Origin: Eubacteriales bacterium
GTDB lineage: Bacteria > Bacillota > Clostridia > Oscillospirales > CAG-272
DNA: 64,000 bases
Direction of reading: 5' to 3'
Assembly (NCBI GenBank): GCA_045586785.1
Contig: JAZNBA010000072.1
Coordinates: forward strand, 59,197-123,196
The position numbers were made by a program, and so were the translations under genes. Numbering within the stretch: the stretch's first letter is position 1; every line of letters starts with the position of its first letter. Shown in pieces: positions 29,535-55,350 of the stretch. A model generated the notes under the pieces. That model had not been told where the DNA came from. It saw only the letters and a list, made by a program, of their open reading frames with translations, and made no database searches.

Positions 29535-29563
29535 TTGACAAATGTAAAGTGTTGTGATATAAT
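29535..29563 (+). promoter_or_regulatory. consensus promoter of the tRNA pair
   Basis: TTGACA-17 nt-TATAAT with extended -10 TG. Confidence 0.75.
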
Positions 29564-29599
29564 AATCAAGCGCTGTGAAAATCACAGTGTAAAAAACGT

Positions 29600-29676
29600 G
29601 GCGGAATAGCTCAGCTGGCTAGAGCATCCGGTTCATACCCGGCAGGTCGTTGGTTCAAATCCGACTTCCGCTACCA
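29600..29676 (+). tRNA. tRNA-Met (anticodon CAT, elongator-like)
   Basis: Cloverleaf readable: GGCGGAA acceptor, GCTC/GAGC D-stem, loop TTCATAC, T-arm GTTGG-TTCAAAT-CCGAC, encoded CCA. A lysidine tRNA-Ile2 is not excluded. Confidence 0.85.
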
Positions 29677-29751
29677 GGCCCGTTGGTCAAGCGGTTAAGA
29701 CACCGCCCTTTCACGGCGGTAACATGGGTTCGATTCCCGTACGGGTCACCA
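29677..29751 (+). tRNA. tRNA-Glu (anticodon TTC)
   Basis: GGCCCGTTGGTCAAGCGGTTAAGACACCGCCCTTTCACGGCGG...GGGTTCGATTCCCGTACGGGTCACCA. Starts directly after the CCA of tRNA-Met. Confidence 0.95.
29712..29751 (+). repeat. attL-side repeat (3' half of tRNA-Glu)
   Basis: CACGGCGGTAACATGGGTTCGATTCCCGTACGGGTCACCA. A degenerate copy lies at 55255-55283. Confidence 0.75.
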
Positions 29752-29755
29752 ATAG

Positions 29756-29808
29756 AAACAAATCCGAACTATTTCGTAACAAACGATGTGTTCGGATTTG
29801 TTTTTTAT
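29756..29808 (+). terminator. rho-independent terminator after the tRNA pair
   Basis: AAACAAATCCGAAC-N20-GTTCGGATTTGTTT followed by TTTT. Confidence 0.8.
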
Positions 29809-29845: not shown

Positions 29846-30097
29846 TCACGCCTGCACCCTCAGTTCTTTTTGTTGTTTTCGCTTGGCTTTCCACTCTTCA
29901 AAGTCCTTTACGTTTTCTTCTTTACTGAAATATTCAAGAATATACGGCAAGAAACTTCGAGCAAGAACCTCATATTCATAATCGGGAACCTTTGTAGGAA
30001 GATCAACGATTAAATCTTCACCTCCGGACAAGGCGAGCTTGTTACTAAGCAACCACAAACCCACATAATATAATTTTTTAAATAAGCTCAATAGCAT
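29846..30097 (-). CDS. small hypothetical protein of the mobilisation module
   Basis: 83 aa. 1-nt overlap with the upstream ParB-like gene. No motif recognised. Confidence 0.5.
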   Translation of the reverse strand: MLLSLFKKLYYVGLWLLSNKLALSGGEDLIVDLPTKVPDYEYEVLARSFLPYILEYFSKEENVKDFEEWKAKRKQQKELRVQA

Positions 30098-34055: not shown

Positions 34056-34094
34056 TTTCGCACATTTGCCGACAATTGGCAAAAATGGTAAAAT
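34056..34094 (+). promoter_or_regulatory. promoter of tnpV-like gene with conserved upstream motif
   Basis: TTTCGCACATTTGC motif overlapping -35 TTGCCG, then 17 nt, then TAAAAT. The same architecture occurs at 53401-53439. Confidence 0.55.
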
Positions 34095-34132
34095 GACTTT
34101 GTAAAAAATATTTGATTGGAGGAGATTTGATT

Positions 34133-34483
34133 ATGGAACTCACCCACACCGAAAGAAACGGCATTATGTATCCCGACTTGGCACTCCCCGAGCAGACCAA
34201 TTACCCCATCGGCAAGTACGGCAGAATGCGCCTCAACTATCTCAAAAAGCATCGCCGCGGCACCTACACCACGCTTCTCACCTCGTGCACGCTCAATCAG
34301 CATCTCTATGAAACCGAGCAGGAGGTACAGCGGCAGATCGACCTCACCCTATCACGGTTGGTAAAAGAGCTCGGCATCACCGAAGAACTTAAAGTTTCTA
34401 ACCTTCTTCAGTGGGTACAAGAAATGAACAACGCGAAACAAAGCGCGGAGGAAATCGTGCTGAATGAAATAATCTGCAAATAA
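34133..34483 (+). CDS. TnpV-like transposon-encoded protein
   Basis: MELTHTERNGIMYPDLALPEQTNYPIGKYGRMRLNYLKKHRRGTYTTLL is typical of the TnpV family as I recall it from Tn4451-type elements. Confidence 0.7.
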   Translation: MELTHTERNGIMYPDLALPEQTNYPIGKYGRMRLNYLKKHRRGTYTTLLTSCTLNQHLYETEQEVQRQIDLTLSRLVKELGITEELKVSNLLQWVQEMNNAKQSAEEIVLNEIICK

Positions 34484-51085: not shown

Positions 51086-51090
51086 ATTTG

Positions 51091-51122
51091 AAAAGTTCGT
51101 GTAACAACGAACTTTTCTTTTT
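51091..51122 (+). terminator. rho-independent terminator of the cargo operon
   Basis: AAAAGTTCG-N8-CGAACTTTT followed by CTTTTT. Confidence 0.75.
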
Positions 51123-51156
51123 CGCAAATTAGTGAAACAAATATTTTCATTATATA

Positions 51157-51185
51157 TTGACAAATGCTTTCTTTTATGATATAAT
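51157..51185 (+). promoter_or_regulatory. consensus promoter of the LexA-like gene
   Basis: TTGACA-17 nt-TATAAT with extended -10 TG. Flanked by GAAAC-N5-(G/T)TTTC palindromes at 51134-51148 and 51199-51213. Confidence 0.7.
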
Positions 51186-51224
51186 TCCAATACATACTGA
51201 AACATTATGTTTCTTGGAGGGTTT

Positions 51225-51839
51225 ATGAGAAGAAAAGACGAATCAAAAAAGAGTGTGATACTTGATTTCATCGACGAGTATTACAACGAATATAACGAGA
51301 TCCCTGCCGTAAGAACAATCGCAGAGGGCACGGGAATTGCTTTAGCAACCGTGCATCGTTATCTGCTGTCGCTCAAAGAAAGCGGCGAACTTGAATACAA
51401 CGGTCGCAAGTCGATCTCCACCAAGCGCATTGATTTGGAATCGCGTCACGCTTCTGCTCCCGTTCTCGGTTACGTCCGCTGCGGCGAAGGCGAAGAAGAA
51501 ACAGAGGAAGTCATCGAGTATATCCGTCTCCCCGAAAGCTTAGTTGGCACGGGAGAATTCTTTGTACTGATAGCAAAGGGTGATTCTATGGTGGATGCAG
51601 GCGTTAATGAGGGTGACTATGTCGTTATCCGAAAGCAGAATACCGCTAATGAAGGAGATTATGTTGTTGCACTATATGAGGGACTTAACAATCTGAAAGA
51701 GCTTGCACGTGGTGATAACGGCAGATACATTCTCCGATCTTGTAATGAGGATAAGGCGACCTATCCCGATATCTACCCAAACGATTTGAGAATACAAGGG
51801 GTAGCCGTTTGTGTAATGCATAAATTATTAAGGAGGTAA
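51225..51839 (+). CDS. LexA-like S24 peptidase repressor
   Basis: Winged-HTH N-terminus (RTIAEGTGIALATVHRYLLSLKESGELE). The GDSM serine and a Lys 37 residues later match the E. coli LexA S119/K156 spacing. Confidence 0.85.
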   Translation: MRRKDESKKSVILDFIDEYYNEYNEIPAVRTIAEGTGIALATVHRYLLSLKESGELEYNGRKSISTKRIDLESRHASAPVLGYVRCGEGEEETEEVIEYIRLPESLVGTGEFFVLIAKGDSMVDAGVNEGDYVVIRKQNTANEGDYVVALYEGLNNLKELARGDNGRYILRSCNEDKATYPDIYPNDLRIQGVAVCVMHKLLRR

Positions 51840-51845
51840 AAACTA

Positions 51846-52718
51846 TTGGCTGAAGAAAGAACTATTCAACAAAATGCGGATGAATTGGTCACCGCACTTG
51901 TAAATACAATCGGTAACGGATCTGTGCAGGAAGTAGTTGATAAGAATCGCGACGATGCGCTCGATATATCAAACATTGCGGTCAACCTTCCTCTCAAAGA
52001 AATGCCACCCGAAGTGGTAAAATATCTCAAAGACCTCGTACAAACCGTTAAAGGAACAAGTATGGATACACGCCACGATTTGAGCTTGGCATTCCCTCCC
52101 TCTCATTTTTCGGGCGAAGATAATCCGCTGATGCTTTTCTACAAAGCGTTTTACGACACCGTTACTTATTATACTACACTTATTCAAAGTGTTCCCGAGG
52201 TTCGCGACGCGCTGATAAGGGCAATGGCAGATAAGGGGTATAACGAGGATAATATCGATGAGTTTCTAAAGCGGGAGTGGGACATCAACGCCTATTTGAT
52301 GAACTTGCCTCAGATTGCGGAGATTTTCAAAGAGTTACCAGACTATTCCGATTACAACCACGGAAAGCCTAATAATTATTCTCTACAAAATGCGAAACGT
52401 AAAATTGAACATATGAGTGGCGGTCAACTTGTTGAGAAAGTATCAATTGAGCGTGGCGGTCCTAAGGATGCAAGCGGACAGTATACGCCCTATCCTTTGG
52501 ACGACGAAACCGACGTTACTACGGAAGTCATCGACAAAATATATCTTGAACAATGTCTTGCTCTGCTTTCACCCGAAGACCGTGAGCTCTTGGTACGTCA
52601 CGCCAACGGCGAAACTTATACCGCGCTTGCCAAAGACTACGGATATGCCAATGCAAGCGGTGTCAGAAAACGTATTGAGAGAATTAAAAAACAGATAACT
52701 AATGCATTTGCTGAATAG
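51846..52718 (+). CDS. sigma-70 region-4 / LuxR-type HTH domain protein with unknown N-terminal domain
   Basis: TTG start 9 nt after AAGGAGG. C-terminal LSPEDRELLVRHANGETYTALAKDYGYANASGVRKRIERIKKQI. No region 2 recognised. Confidence 0.55.
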   Translation: MAEERTIQQNADELVTALVNTIGNGSVQEVVDKNRDDALDISNIAVNLPLKEMPPEVVKYLKDLVQTVKGTSMDTRHDLSLAFPPSHFSGEDNPLMLFYKAFYDTVTYYTTLIQSVPEVRDALIRAMADKGYNEDNIDEFLKREWDINAYLMNLPQIAEIFKELPDYSDYNHGKPNNYSLQNAKRKIEHMSGGQLVEKVSIERGGPKDASGQYTPYPLDDETDVTTEVIDKIYLEQCLALLSPEDRELLVRHANGETYTALAKDYGYANASGVRKRIERIKKQITNAFAE

Positions 52719-52727
52719 GAGATAGAC

Positions 52728-53399
52728 ATGACAATTAATAGTATTAGTAGTGATGTAAAATTCCCGGATATGGAATTTTATAATATGAGCACCCCCGGTG
52801 AGATGGCATTATACCTTGCTCACTGTGATTTTTATCCATTCCAAAGCGTTTTGAGAAACAATCAACTTGCGTTAGATGCACTATCTCAAGGATATCGAGA
52901 AATGCTACAAAAGGCACAAGCCAGCGATGATTTTTACACAGAATCTTTTGCTATGACAAGTGGTACATTACACAATTCTCGTGTCAGTTTGCTAACTTAT
53001 TATTCGTTAGTTTTGACTATGGTGTCCATCTTGGAAGAATCAGTAAATACATTGTGTAGAGTATACTACAATATGCTAACGCTGAAAAAACAGCTTAGTG
53101 ATATAAAGGGGCGAGGATTAGAGCGTGCAGCAGAATACTTAAAAAAAGAAGTAGGCATTGAAGGTTTTACCTCAGACCCCCAATGGGAATATATTACAAC
53201 TATTCGTGATGCAAGAAATATGATTGTTCATAACGGCGGACGAGTAATCAAAGATTTTGATAAATTTGATAAATTCAAAATTGGATATAGAGAAGAAGAC
53301 CACCAATTATATTTTGAATACAGCGATATTGAAAAAATGTATAATGCCATTCTTGAATATATTGATAGAGCTTTTAGACTTGTTCCTACAAAAAAATAA
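52728..53399 (+). CDS. hypothetical protein, possible HEPN-type domain
   Basis: 223 aa with RBS AGGAG. Helical. ITTIRDARNMIVHNGG contains an R-x4-H motif in HEPN-like context. Confidence 0.4.
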   Translation: MTINSISSDVKFPDMEFYNMSTPGEMALYLAHCDFYPFQSVLRNNQLALDALSQGYREMLQKAQASDDFYTESFAMTSGTLHNSRVSLLTYYSLVLTMVSILEESVNTLCRVYYNMLTLKKQLSDIKGRGLERAAEYLKKEVGIEGFTSDPQWEYITTIRDARNMIVHNGGRVIKDFDKFDKFKIGYREEDHQLYFEYSDIEKMYNAILEYIDRAFRLVPTKK

Positions 53400-53400
53400 T

Positions 53401-53439
53401 TTTCGCACATTTGCGAGATTTTCATCACTGTGTTAAAAT
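53401..53439 (+). promoter_or_regulatory. promoter of the serine recombinase gene with conserved upstream motif
   Basis: TTTCGCACATTTGC overlapping -35 TTGCGA, then 17 nt, then TAAAAT (TG extended). Confidence 0.55.
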
Positions 53440-53460
53440 GAGAGCGAAAGGGGTGATTCT

Positions 53461-55350
53461 ATGACAGGCGTTATTTATGCACGATATTCCTCGGACAACC
53501 AACGCGAAGAATCGATAGAAGGTCAGCTTCGTGAATGCACGGCGTTTGCACAAAAGAACGATATAACGATCATTGAGCATTATATAGACAGAGCATATTC
53601 TGCCAAGACAGACAACCGTCCCGAGTTTCAAAGAATGATACGCGAGAGCGCGCGGAAAGCATATGATGTGGTAATCGTATGGAAACTTGACAGATTTTCG
53701 AGAAACCGTTTCGACTCTGCAAAATACAAAGCTGCATTGAAAAAGAACAAGATTCGCGTTATTTCCGCCACAGAAGCGATCTCCGATGGAGCAGAAGGTA
53801 TTATTCTTGAATCCGTGTTGGAAGGCATGGCAGAATACTATTCAGCAGATCTTTCGGAAAAGGTTACAAGAGGTCATACTGAAAACGCCCTCAAATGTCA
53901 GTTCAACGGCAGTGTTGTTCCTTACGGATACGTTATCGACAAGGAGAAGCATTATCAACTTGATCCCGAGAAAGCACCTATCGTTCTTGAAATCTTCAAA
54001 CGATACACAAGCGGCGAAACGATTACCGCTATTACAAAAGATCTTAATGCAAGGGGACTAAGAACAGCTAAAGGAAATGAATTCAACAAGAACAGCCTTC
54101 ACCATATGTTGAAAAATCGTAATTATATCGGTGAATATCGCTACAAGGATTTCGTTACACCCGGTGGAGTGCCTGCTATAGTTCCCGAGGATATCTTCAA
54201 TCGCGCGGTTTCCCTTATGGAAAGCAACAAACACGCGCCTGCGCGTAAGAAAGCCAAAGAGGATTACCTGCTAACAACCAAGCTTTTCTGCGGGAATTGC
54301 CTTGCTATGATGATTGGCGAAAGTGGTCAGAAAAGCAACGGGAATATTTATCGTTATTACAAATGCGCGGGTGCCAAGAAGCACGTTTGCGATAAGAAAA
54401 CCGTTCGCAAAGAATGGATAGAGGATATCGCGTTACAGTTAACGATGAAGATATTGATGAGCGATGAGGACCTTCAAAAGATCGCTGATAGAATTATGGA
54501 GCTTCAAAAGACAGAAAACATGATGATACCTGTGTTGGAACGTCAATTAGAGGCTGTCCGCGCTTCTATCGATAATATTCTTAAAGCCATTGAGATGGGT
54601 GTTTGCACTCGTTCAACCAAAACGCGCCTCGAAGAACTTGAGACGGAGGAAGAACGGATTAAGGGCGATATTTGCCGTGAGCAGTTGGATTCCCGACTTG
54701 TCACCGAAGATCAGATTTGGTATATCTTTGATAAATTCCGCCAAATGGATTTATCAATGCCCAAGCAACGCCAACGTCTGCTTGACAGTTTTCTGCAATC
54801 AATCGTTCTTTTTGATGATAAACTTATTATCTCGTTTAATTATCGTAGTCAACCCGTTACCATTATGCTCGATCAGTTGGTCGATTTTATTAACGGAAGC
54901 GGTTCGGATTTGGTAAGCGCTGCTTCACCAAAACAAAACAGGAGCACTTTGTGCTCCTGTTTTGTTTTGGTGACCCATGTTCGTCAAGACAAGCCCGCAA
55001 AATGCGCAGCATTTTGCAAATTGGCGCTTTGCGCCAATTTTTTCGATAGCCGCAATAGCGGCGTCCCGTACGGGCAGGAGCACAAAGTGCTCCTGTTTTG
55101 TTTTGATAACCCAGTCACCGAAGAAGAACCACACGTTGCCCGCCGAAGCGGTCAACTTACCGAGTTTTGCTTCGCAAAACATCGCCTCAATTTGCGAAGC
55201 AATTTCACAGCGTGTGCGCAGGGAAGAAGAACGCGTGCAGAGAATAATGGCGCACACGGCGGTTCAGATTCCCGTACGTGTCAGATCTGTGTCACTGTCA
55301 CAATCCAAAGATACCGCCGAAAGAGACCAAACGGTCACTCTCGGCGGTAA
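53461..55350 (+). CDS. large serine recombinase (3' end uncertain)
   Basis: VIYARYSSDNQREESIEGQ catalytic Ser region, DRFSRN, recombinase domain, Cys-rich zinc ribbon (CGNC...CAGAKKHVC), coiled coil. Recognisable similarity ends near nt 54915. The remaining ~140 codons run through palindromes and the att remnant. Confidence 0.8.
   Translation: MTGVIYARYSSDNQREESIEGQLRECTAFAQKNDITIIEHYIDRAYSAKTDNRPEFQRMIRESARKAYDVVIVWKLDRFSRNRFDSAKYKAALKKNKIRVISATEAISDGAEGIILESVLEGMAEYYSADLSEKVTRGHTENALKCQFNGSVVPYGYVIDKEKHYQLDPEKAPIVLEIFKRYTSGETITAITKDLNARGLRTAKGNEFNKNSLHHMLKNRNYIGEYRYKDFVTPGGVPAIVPEDIFNRAVSLMESNKHAPARKKAKEDYLLTTKLFCGNCLAMMIGESGQKSNGNIYRYYKCAGAKKHVCDKKTVRKEWIEDIALQLTMKILMSDEDLQKIADRIMELQKTENMMIPVLERQLEAVRASIDNILKAIEMGVCTRSTKTRLEELETEEERIKGDICREQLDSRLVTEDQIWYIFDKFRQMDLSMPKQRQRLLDSFLQSIVLFDDKLIISFNYRSQPVTIMLDQLVDFINGSGSDLVSAASPKQNRSTLCSCFVLVTHVRQDKPAKCAAFCKLALCANFFDSRNSGVPYGQEHKVLLFCFDNPVTEEEPHVARRSGQLTEFCFAKHRLNLRSNFTACAQGRRTRAENNGAHGGSDSRTCQICVTVTIQRYRRKRPNGHSRR
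54926..54972. repeat. perfect 22-bp-stem hairpin (47 nt)
   Basis: CACCAAAACAAAACAGGAGCAC-TTT-GTGCTCCTGTTTTGTTTTGGTG. Confidence 0.95.
54939..54977 (+). repeat. 39-nt direct repeat, copy 1
   Basis: CAGGAGCAC-TTT-GTGCTCCTGTTTTGTTTTGGTGACCCA. Confidence 0.85.
55075..55113 (+). repeat. 39-nt direct repeat, copy 2
   Basis: CAGGAGCAC-AAA-GTGCTCCTGTTTTGTTTTGATAACCCA. The loop is inverted and there are 2 mismatches. Confidence 0.85.
55255..55283 (+). repeat. attR-side remnant of the tRNA-Glu 3' half
   Basis: CACGGCGGTTCAGATTCCCGTACGTGTCA. The ungapped core GATTCCCGTACG(G/T)GTCA matches tRNA-Glu at 16/17. With a 9-nt gap, 27 of 29 nt align. Confidence 0.75.
55313..55348 (-). terminator. terminator of the ECF sigma operon
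   Basis: ACCGCCGA...TCGGCGGT stem with a T-run on the minus strand. Confidence 0.55.

Follow-up and report, generated by a model that had tools for sequence, protein, structure and literature searches.

In SXT-R391 (SetR/SetCD) and in lambda (cI) an element-encoded, self-cleaving repressor of the S24 type stands over a regulator of excision or transfer genes, and the system is induced by DNA damage. A damage-sensitive repressor also stands over a small sigma-like or activator protein in PBSX (Xre/Xpf) and in the pyocin system (PrtR/PrtN), where these factors drive the lysis or bacteriocin genes of defective phages. On SCCmec this part is played by the LexA of the host, which represses ccrAB/ccrC1 through an SOS box in the promoter of these recombinase genes and thereby controls excision (PMC5397144). 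Conjugative and mobilisable transposons of C. difficile (e.g. Tn6105) were reported in 2011 to encode, beside their serine recombinases, sigma-like proteins comprising region 4 (r4) only (PMC3158075). Here we describe the regulation and recombination end (51.1-55.0 kb) of an integrative mobilisable element of about 25 kb, the island, in a stretch of 64,000 nt (the window) of contig JAZNBA010000072.1 from a gut bacterium of the Clostridia (Eubacteriales, CAG-272), whose own genome is a 2.67-Mb assembly of 116 contigs.

The conserved unit of this region consists of an S24 repressor, a protein of 290 amino acids (aa) that is a candidate regulator, and a large serine recombinase; elements have exchanged the "immunity types" of the repressor among themselves. 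The order repressor, 290-aa protein, recombinase recurs in loci L038, L043-L050, L069 and L097, and the 290-aa protein followed by the recombinase in L002, L006-8, L060 and L096. In L038, L044 and many others the repressor is only 40% identical to that of the window, with gaps of 5 nt and then 63-132 nt between the genes. We favour, with guarded confidence, a model in which the private S24 repressor controls the 290-aa regulator, which acts through promoters carrying a common box on excision of the island. The repressor would bind two 17-bp operators bracketing its own promoter and so silence the operon of the S24, 290-aa and HEPN-like genes. On DNA damage, activated RecA (RecA*) would lead to cleavage at Cys86-Gly87 by Ser121/Lys158, as the intact residues suggest, and the operon would be derepressed. 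The 290-aa protein would then act on the box at the -35 position of two extended -10 promoters, those of the recombinase gene and of tnpV, presumably switching them on rather than off, and excision genes would be expressed. The HEPN-like passenger would be co-expressed only once the repressor is removed. Overall this is an ordinary class of mobile-element switch; new in it is the proposed regulator-box pair, and the reading of the HEPN-like gene is corrected to that of a passenger. The features of the module are as follows:

51133-51149, + strand: putative operator site 1, TGAAACAAATATTTTCA, 8 nt 5' of the -35 hexamer; core GAAAC-AAATA-TTTTC at 51134-51148
51157-51185, + strand: promoter, TTGACA (51157-51162), 17-nt spacer, TATAAT (51180-51185); 12 of 12 consensus positions matched
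51198-51214, + strand: putative operator site 2, CTGAAACATTATGTTTCT, with the perfect GAAAC-ATTAT-GTTTC at 51199-51213; about +7 to +23 of the transcript
51225-51839, + strand: S24 repressor of the LexA/UmuD type, 204 aa; ATG after GGAGG; winged helix-turn-helix (HTH), Cys86-Gly87, Ser121/Lys158
51846-52718, + strand: 290-aa backbone protein; TTG start; unique helical N-terminal part of about 200 aa and C-terminal HTH of the sigma-70 region-4 type (about 226-289)
52728-53399, + strand: HEPN-like gene, passenger, 223 aa; R163-N-x3-H168; between the regulator gene and the recombinase promoter
53404-53439, + strand: recombinase box promoter; CGCACATTTGC box (53404-53414), TAAAAT with upstream TG, 20 nt after the CACATTTG core
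53461-54915, + strand: large serine recombinase; Pfam domains Resolvase (E 4e-29), Recombinase (E 3e-17) and Zn_ribbon_recom (E 7e-9)

The repressor and its operators

The first-pass annotation, made from the sequence of this DNA, had described the product of the first gene as a LexA-like repressor retaining a Ser/Lys dyad. Profile searches bear this out: the protein matches Peptidase_S24 (PF00717) over positions 1-116 of the 116 of the profile (E 1.4e-20, 73.6 bits against a cut-off of 23.3), and the dyad is present as Ser121 and Lys158, 37 residues apart. With the LexA model TIGR00498 the repressor aligns end to end at 96.2 bits (95.5 when the whole genome was searched), as against 204 bits for the host LexA of contig C10 and 124 bits for another protein, encoded on C41. 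The genome encodes recA. Upstream of host lexA stands GAAC-AAAT-GTTT, and the island gene has instead TGAAAC-N5-(G/T)TTTC sites, which confirms that its palindromes, as noted at first reading, are unlike an SOS box. Because a bona fide LexA is encoded elsewhere in the genome and the operator is a different one, the repressor is an extra, island-borne paralogue and not the host LexA.

Self-cleavage stimulated by RecA is plausible for this protein, since both the catalytic dyad and the cleavage site are intact. G87, S121 and K158 are invariant in an alignment of the repressor with 12 homologues (28-94% identity). The Cys86-Gly87 site resembles that of UmuD; Cys-Gly is found at this place in all element-borne homologues and Ala-Gly in host LexA. 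Against a damage-sensitive switch it must be said that LexA-like paralogues do not all self-cleave, and that the repressor falls below the LexA equivalog cut-off of 110.95 bits. The latter point would also suit a repressor insensitive to RecA and DNA damage, which either confers constitutive immunity or answers to another signal; so would the five S24-type regulators found in the genome in all, which suggest diversified inputs. We give this explanation a low but appreciable probability, as the cleavage-site Gly and the catalytic Ser and Lys are invariant in all clades, which is unexpected if cleavage were dispensable.

The perfect TTGACA-17-TATAAT promoter reported at first reading is indeed present, and TG at 51177-78 makes its -10 extended besides. 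Shuffling predicts 0.01 perfect 29-nt promoters of this kind for the window, which has five; they are real signals in this organism. In relatives the hexamers are kept, and the spacer between -35 and -10 is about half substituted relative to the window.

The two palindromes around this promoter lie 65 bp apart, centre to centre. Their number alone is unremarkable, GAAAC-N5-GTTTC with at most one mismatch being present five times in the window against 2.8 expected. A scan of species-representative genomes gave 57 related loci, in about 20 of which the repressor is 92-97% identical as protein and 84-87% as DNA. In these loci neither site varies, save for the central base of site 2. Site 1 is invariant in all seven aligned loci and was found in 16 of the 19 related loci scanned; the DNA 5' of it is unrelated among loci, and its distance from the -35 differs by 1 base. 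This invariance between varying flanks supports the earlier description of the pair as autoregulatory operators, their binding by the repressor being a prediction. Six other repressor clades (35-69% identity) each have their own, different palindrome at the same place just 3' of the -10 (GAAAC-N5-GTTCC; TGAATATATTTTCA; CCCGAAC-N5-GTTCGGG; TGAAAC-N4-GTTTCA; GGTAC-ATTT-GTACC; GGAAC-N5-GTTC), which is the pattern expected of cognate repressor-operator pairs. The palindromes of the window are thus a real operator pair, to which the repressor would bind.

A second operator pair was found neither in the window nor in the genome. A scan of the island for further operator sites had been suggested; in the window it returned, beyond the pair, only one-mismatch matches, which are intragenic and occur at the rate expected by chance. 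It follows that the direct regulon of the repressor is a single promoter. A lone TGAAACAAACATTTTC, one base off site 1, stands at C106:19307-19322, on a contig with no match to an S24 gene, and may be due to chance.

Two relatives depart from this arrangement. In L025 (3160-3300) site 1 and the promoter are lost, and a terminator-like hairpin is fused straight to site 2 and the repressor gene. L003 (3375-8873, 15577-16873) is one element with two different S24 repressors, each having its own operator: the first heads an operon of a 348-aa protein, NikA, relaxase and the 290-aa protein; the second directly precedes the box and the recombinase; and a defence-like block of AAA_15, DUF3226 and SEC-C genes lies between the two repressor parts.

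The 290-aa protein and the box promoters

The repressor gene ends in AGG AGG TAA, and these two Arg codons together with the stop form the ribosome-binding site of the second gene, whose TTG start follows at 51846. The TTG and the ribosome-binding site are kept in this arrangement in homologues, so the translational linkage of the two genes proposed earlier holds. About 110 close homologues of the protein are known, and a profile search of 1.8 billion proteins gave 280 relatives, the distant ones of which likewise show only a C-terminal HTH of the r4 type.

That an HTH of the sigma-70 region-4 type is the sole recognisable part of this protein, as first noted, agrees with a series of weak matches confined to residues 226-289. 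Sigma70_r4_2 of Pfam scores 14.1 bits, below its cut-off of 25.7; TIGR02937 matches with E 1.7e-4 and NF005385 of NCBIfam, "positive control sigma-like factor", with E 0.0026. The best sequence match in the PDB is region 4 of the extracytoplasmic function (ECF) sigma factor SigL (E 0.004-0.006). A hidden Markov model (HMM) built from the 24 sigma factors of this genome reaches only residues 227-289 of the protein (E 2e-4), and hhalign against the genome's own ECF sigma alignment gives the r4-type HTH a probability of 94.8%. The AlphaFold2 (AF2) model has a mean confidence (pLDDT) of 55 and is confident only for residues 110-150 and for four helices at 225-289.

These matches, the location of the box at the -35 position, and the fact that r4-only sigma-like proteins are common on clostridial transposons, TcdR being of that kind (PMC3158075), would all suit a true but highly divergent alternative sigma factor, similar to TcdR or UviA, that brings core RNA polymerase to the box promoters. 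We nevertheless find this unlikely. Region 2 was sought in residues 1-205, where hhalign gave 0.2%, no better than 20 column-shuffled controls, and the HMM of the 24 sigma factors stays within the C-terminal domain. A colinear alignment with the ECF sigma factor encoded in the window, which seemed to offer a region 2 (0.6%, insignificant), was rejected, since the N-terminus scored as the shuffled controls did. Moreover, the -10 sequences of the box promoters resemble housekeeping extended -10s. The 290-aa protein is accordingly best described as an r4-type DNA-binding protein with a novel N-terminal domain, not as a demonstrable sigma factor. In L006-L008 (8001-8951) there is a version in which about 80 N-terminal residues are replaced and which lacks an upstream repressor gene; a recombinase with the box follows it all the same. 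This version is recorded on 54 contigs and may represent, within a single species, an element that has decayed or become fixed.

The box itself stands before the recombinase gene, where what seemed a "terminator-like hairpin" after the 223-aa gene is in fact this box, and a second time before tnpV:

34059-34094, + strand: tnpV box promoter; TTTCGCACATTTGC (34059-34069), TAAAAT 20 nt after the CACATTTG core; tnpV at 34112-34483

The window holds exactly these two copies, both TTTCGCACATTTGC, with TAAAATGA starting 20 nt after the CACATTTG core. Across loci the consensus is C-G/A-CACATTTG, 20 nt 5' of an extended -10, and the intervening sequence differs; the variant CACATTCG is found upstream of tnpV in related elements. 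The pattern of box plus -10 occurs three times in the 2.67-Mb genome, against none for a control pattern; the copy outside the window is part of another element of the same family, at a contig end.

In every locus having the 290-aa protein (about 20) the box precedes the recombinase gene. It is kept where the 290-aa gene lies 7.4 kb from the recombinase (L003-5) and where cargo has been inserted between the two (the window, L047, L069). A metagenome scan gave 80 homologous recombinases (51-65% identity), two of which have the 290-aa protein upstream, and just those two have the box. None of 86 loci without the 290-aa protein carries it (78 recombinase loci, seven Tn4451-like loci of group A and the C64 locus of the own genome), nor does it stand before tnpV in elements that lack this protein. 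Across loci, then, it is the 290-aa protein that the box accompanies, and not the clade of the recombinase. An Xis-like nature has been suggested for TnpV (PMC3158075), and the box may for this reason mark the two recombination genes of the island.

We propose the box as a candidate binding site of the 290-aa protein. Two types of this protein, 35% identical, share invariant HTH residues, the core of the box is invariant likewise, and protein and box co-occur. Consistent covariation between the type of regulator and the G/A position of the box was not found. The gene order would also suit a recombination directionality factor (RDF) that contacts the serine recombinase to permit excision and does not regulate transcription, as in most loci the 290-aa gene stands immediately 5' of that for the recombinase. 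The RDFs known for serine integrases are, in sequence, unrelated among themselves. Yet the recombinases of L060 and L044 are 98% identical and are accompanied by 290-aa proteins of type II and type I, respectively, which are only 35% identical; such free reassortment of protein and recombinase types argues against a tightly co-evolving RDF. The separation of the two genes by several kilobases in L003-5 points the same way, and a box at a fixed distance from the -10 before two different genes is a transcriptional signature. An RDF is on these grounds a poor candidate, and a transcriptional regulator acting on the box is preferred.

Several observations nonetheless weigh against this regulatory role. 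The box is directly 3' of the 290-aa gene in most loci, and part of the co-occurrence could be co-inheritance. It overlaps a reasonable -35 (TTGCGA) beside the extended -10, so that binding could repress and not activate. For the N-terminal 200 aa of the protein no match was obtained, and the AF2 model is too poor for a fold search.

The HEPN-like gene and the cargo slots

The third gene encodes a protein with about 190 homologues in public data, typically 55-72% identical. According to the HEPN survey, the motif of this superfamily is Rx4-6H with a polar residue after the Arg (PMC3710099); the 223-aa protein has R163-N-M-I-V-H168, and R163, H168, N169 and G171 are invariant in 28 homologues. 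HEPN_RiboL-PSP (PF18735) is the only Pfam family matched, by 12 of the 28 family members (best E 1.8e-5), and RTasHEPN of PADLOC gives a weak match (E 8e-4). AF2 predicts with confidence (pLDDT 93) a protein made up of helices, in which the motif closes helix 153-169 at its C-terminal end and a loop follows; the survey describes the motif at such a position (PMC3710099). Two results speak against the assignment: the protein of the window scores 17.9 bits on PF18735, below the gathering score of 28.4, and Foldseek with the model against the PDB returned no HEPN structure and nothing with E < 0.4. A search of a viral structure library gave one uncharacterised phage protein (TM 0.64), and a sequence-profile search of the PDB gave nothing. 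The assignment rests on the sequence motifs. Of the first description, a helical protein with an R-x4-H motif, the motif and the helical nature stand and the HEPN fold is not confirmed by the fold search. The gene probably encodes an RNase of the defence or toxin type.

It had further been supposed that the repressor, the sigma-r4 protein and the HEPN-like protein make up one system which senses damage or phage infection and ends in an abortive-infection RNase. Behind a single promoter the three genes run in one direction, coupled in translation and with almost no gaps (51225-51839, 51846-52718 and 52728-53399, coding for 204, 290 and 223 aa), which places the HEPN-like gene under repressor control in this island, and its R-N-x3-H motif is invariant. 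As a conserved functional unit, however, the trio did not survive comparison, and we consider it quite improbable: none of the related loci with repressor, regulator and recombinase has the HEPN-like gene, and the slot that it occupies holds other cargo in relatives. Its homologues sit among unrelated cargo and defence neighbours of similar islands, one after DUF6414 and an AAA ATPase, another, with its own promoter, before Fic and nSTAND3. No shared cassette boundaries were found around the gene, the loci sharing its coding sequence only. The HEPN-like gene is thus best regarded as a passenger in a variable cargo slot, co-transcribed here with the regulator.

The junctions between repressor and regulator and between regulator and recombinase are variable cargo slots, filled in relatives mostly with defence-type domains: SIR2_2 (966 aa), DUF2971, a YhcG PDDEXK nuclease, HD_3 nucleotidase, DUF3795 and an unknown 327-aa protein. 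Loci with filled slots are L043/L045 (5666-8566), L047 (7880-8809), L069 (6628-7203, 8158-9147), L049/L050 and L046.

The module as a whole is a mosaic of three separately exchanged pieces with the HEPN-like insertion. Positions 51112-51820 match the repressor cassette of small Tn4451-like elements, which carry the repressor, a Zn-ribbon protein, a ParB-like protein, NikA, relaxase, TnpW and a TnpX-like recombinase. The second piece (51831-52700) has its counterpart in the 290-aa gene of L038, L044 and L050. Between 52700 and 53430 nothing in these three loci is matched; likeness resumes at 53431, and the third piece (53431-54933) matches the recombinase of L038. The two recombinases are 87% identical, and the open frame of the window gene runs on to 55350, beyond the end of homology.

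The island and its relation to known systems

The island reads, in order, ParB, relaxase and NikA on the left, TnpV, a tyrosine recombinase, the nonribosomal peptide synthetase (NRPS) cargo of 17 kb, the regulatory module and the serine recombinase. In its left part, at 30-33 kb, the minus strand encodes ParB, a MobA/VirD2 relaxase (PF03432) and a NikA-like protein; TnpV follows at 34.1 kb, and the left edge has two tRNA genes. By its relaxase, its accessory Mob protein and the large serine recombinase at one end it qualifies as an integrative mobilisable element. No near-identical DNA was found in the plasmid and phage collections searched. The cargo is closed off from the module by a terminator:

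51090-51117, + strand: intrinsic terminator, 11-bp stem followed by TTTTT; closes the upstream phosphopantetheinyl transferase (PPTase)/NRPS operon

Since this terminator precedes it, the regulatory module is a transcription unit of its own, and likeness to the related repressor loci begins just 3' of the terminator, at about 51112-51133. Three outputs had been offered by the first-pass annotation: excision of the island, the cargo operon and an abortive-infection RNase. Excision fits best, as repressor, regulator and recombinase recur together. Control of the NRPS operon found no support, for the strong terminator separates it from the module and the island has no further operators.

Within 29535-29760 a perfect consensus promoter drives the two tRNA genes, which abut the left edge of the island, and an 83-aa open reading frame and ParB begin nearby, at about 29846-30097, on the minus strand. 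The own genome contains at least two more islands of similar general design (contigs C33 22737-24242 and C3 3131-3357; C64 35436-47392). The first, a type-II element broken at contig ends (C33/C3), shows the box, a DUF2971 gene and a recombinase. The second, on C64, encodes TnpV and a repressor of 43% identity, whose operator reads GGTAC-ATTT-GTACC; a SWIM-zinc-finger protein stands in for the 290-aa protein, and the recombinase lacks the box.

A bolder version of the model is advanced only tentatively. The 290-aa protein would found an uncharacterised family of -35-box regulators that couples a private SOS-type repressor to recombinase and TnpV, so that many mobilisable islands of gut Clostridia would have a damage-inducible excision switch. 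The two junctions within the operon would be a dedicated landing pad for defence genes (HEPN, SIR2, DUF2971, PDDEXK), whose expression would require destruction of the repressor, as during prophage induction or DNA damage.

Antibiotic-resistance, defence and biosynthetic genes are moved by the mobilisable islands of gut Clostridia, and the control of excision of these islands is essentially unstudied. In the papers searched, those on gut island families (IME_Rho_tet, Faecalibacterium) included, we found no account of a circuit of this kind. The present analysis offers a testable one, comprising a private LexA-like repressor with its operators, a new regulator family with its candidate box, and two target promoters. 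If it operates as proposed, DNA-damaging drugs would be predicted to mobilise the whole island class, as is known for SXT and SCCmec. Defence-type cargo could then be wired into the induction circuit of its carrier island.

With SetR/SetCD and lambda cI the island shares the layout of an S24 repressor over an operon led by an excision regulator, as proposed here. Its repressor has instead a winged HTH of the LexA type, not of the cI type, and its regulator is unrelated to SetCD. Unlike SXT-R391 it has a large serine recombinase and is mobilisable, not conjugative, and its circuit is a prediction from sequence. The proposed cascade from a repressor to a positive factor is the same as in Xre/Xpf and PrtR/PrtN, whereas the predicted targets in the island are the recombination genes of a mobilisable element.

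For the HEPN-like protein the closest described group is the RiboL-PSP-HEPN / AbiD-AbiF clade (PMC3710099). It shares with this clade the R-N-x3-H motif at a helix end before a loop, the all-helical build and the occurrence on ParB-bearing mobile elements. It differs in its sub-threshold Pfam score, in lacking an L-PSP fusion and a matching solved structure, and in that the gene stands solo, with neither a constant partner nor an antitoxin.

As to the 290-aa protein, the r4-only proteins of C. difficile have the same sole recognisable -35-binding HTH and are found on elements with TnpV, Mob and a serine recombinase; the likeness is drawn from their description. The 290-aa family has in addition a conserved N-terminal domain of about 200 aa and an associated candidate box. 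Like Tn4451/Tn4453 (TnpX, TnpV, TnpW, Mob), the island combines TnpV and a relaxase with a large serine recombinase at its end, and the closest relatives of its repressor (92-97% identity) head small elements with TnpW and a TnpX-like recombinase. The recombinase of the island, however, is only 20-25% identical to those, the 290-aa protein takes the place of TnpW, and a 17-kb NRPS cargo is present.

SCCmec resembles the island in that a LexA-type repressor gates large serine recombinases, and through them the excision of a chromosomal island, in a Gram-positive bacterium. In the present island, however, this repressor is a LexA paralogue of the island itself, its operator is a private one (GAAAC-N5-GTTTC; host, GAAC-N4-GTTT), and an intermediate regulator stands between repressor and recombinase. 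The private LexA paralogue, the uncharacterised regulator family and the cargo slots within the controlled operon set the circuit of this island apart from the systems compared here.

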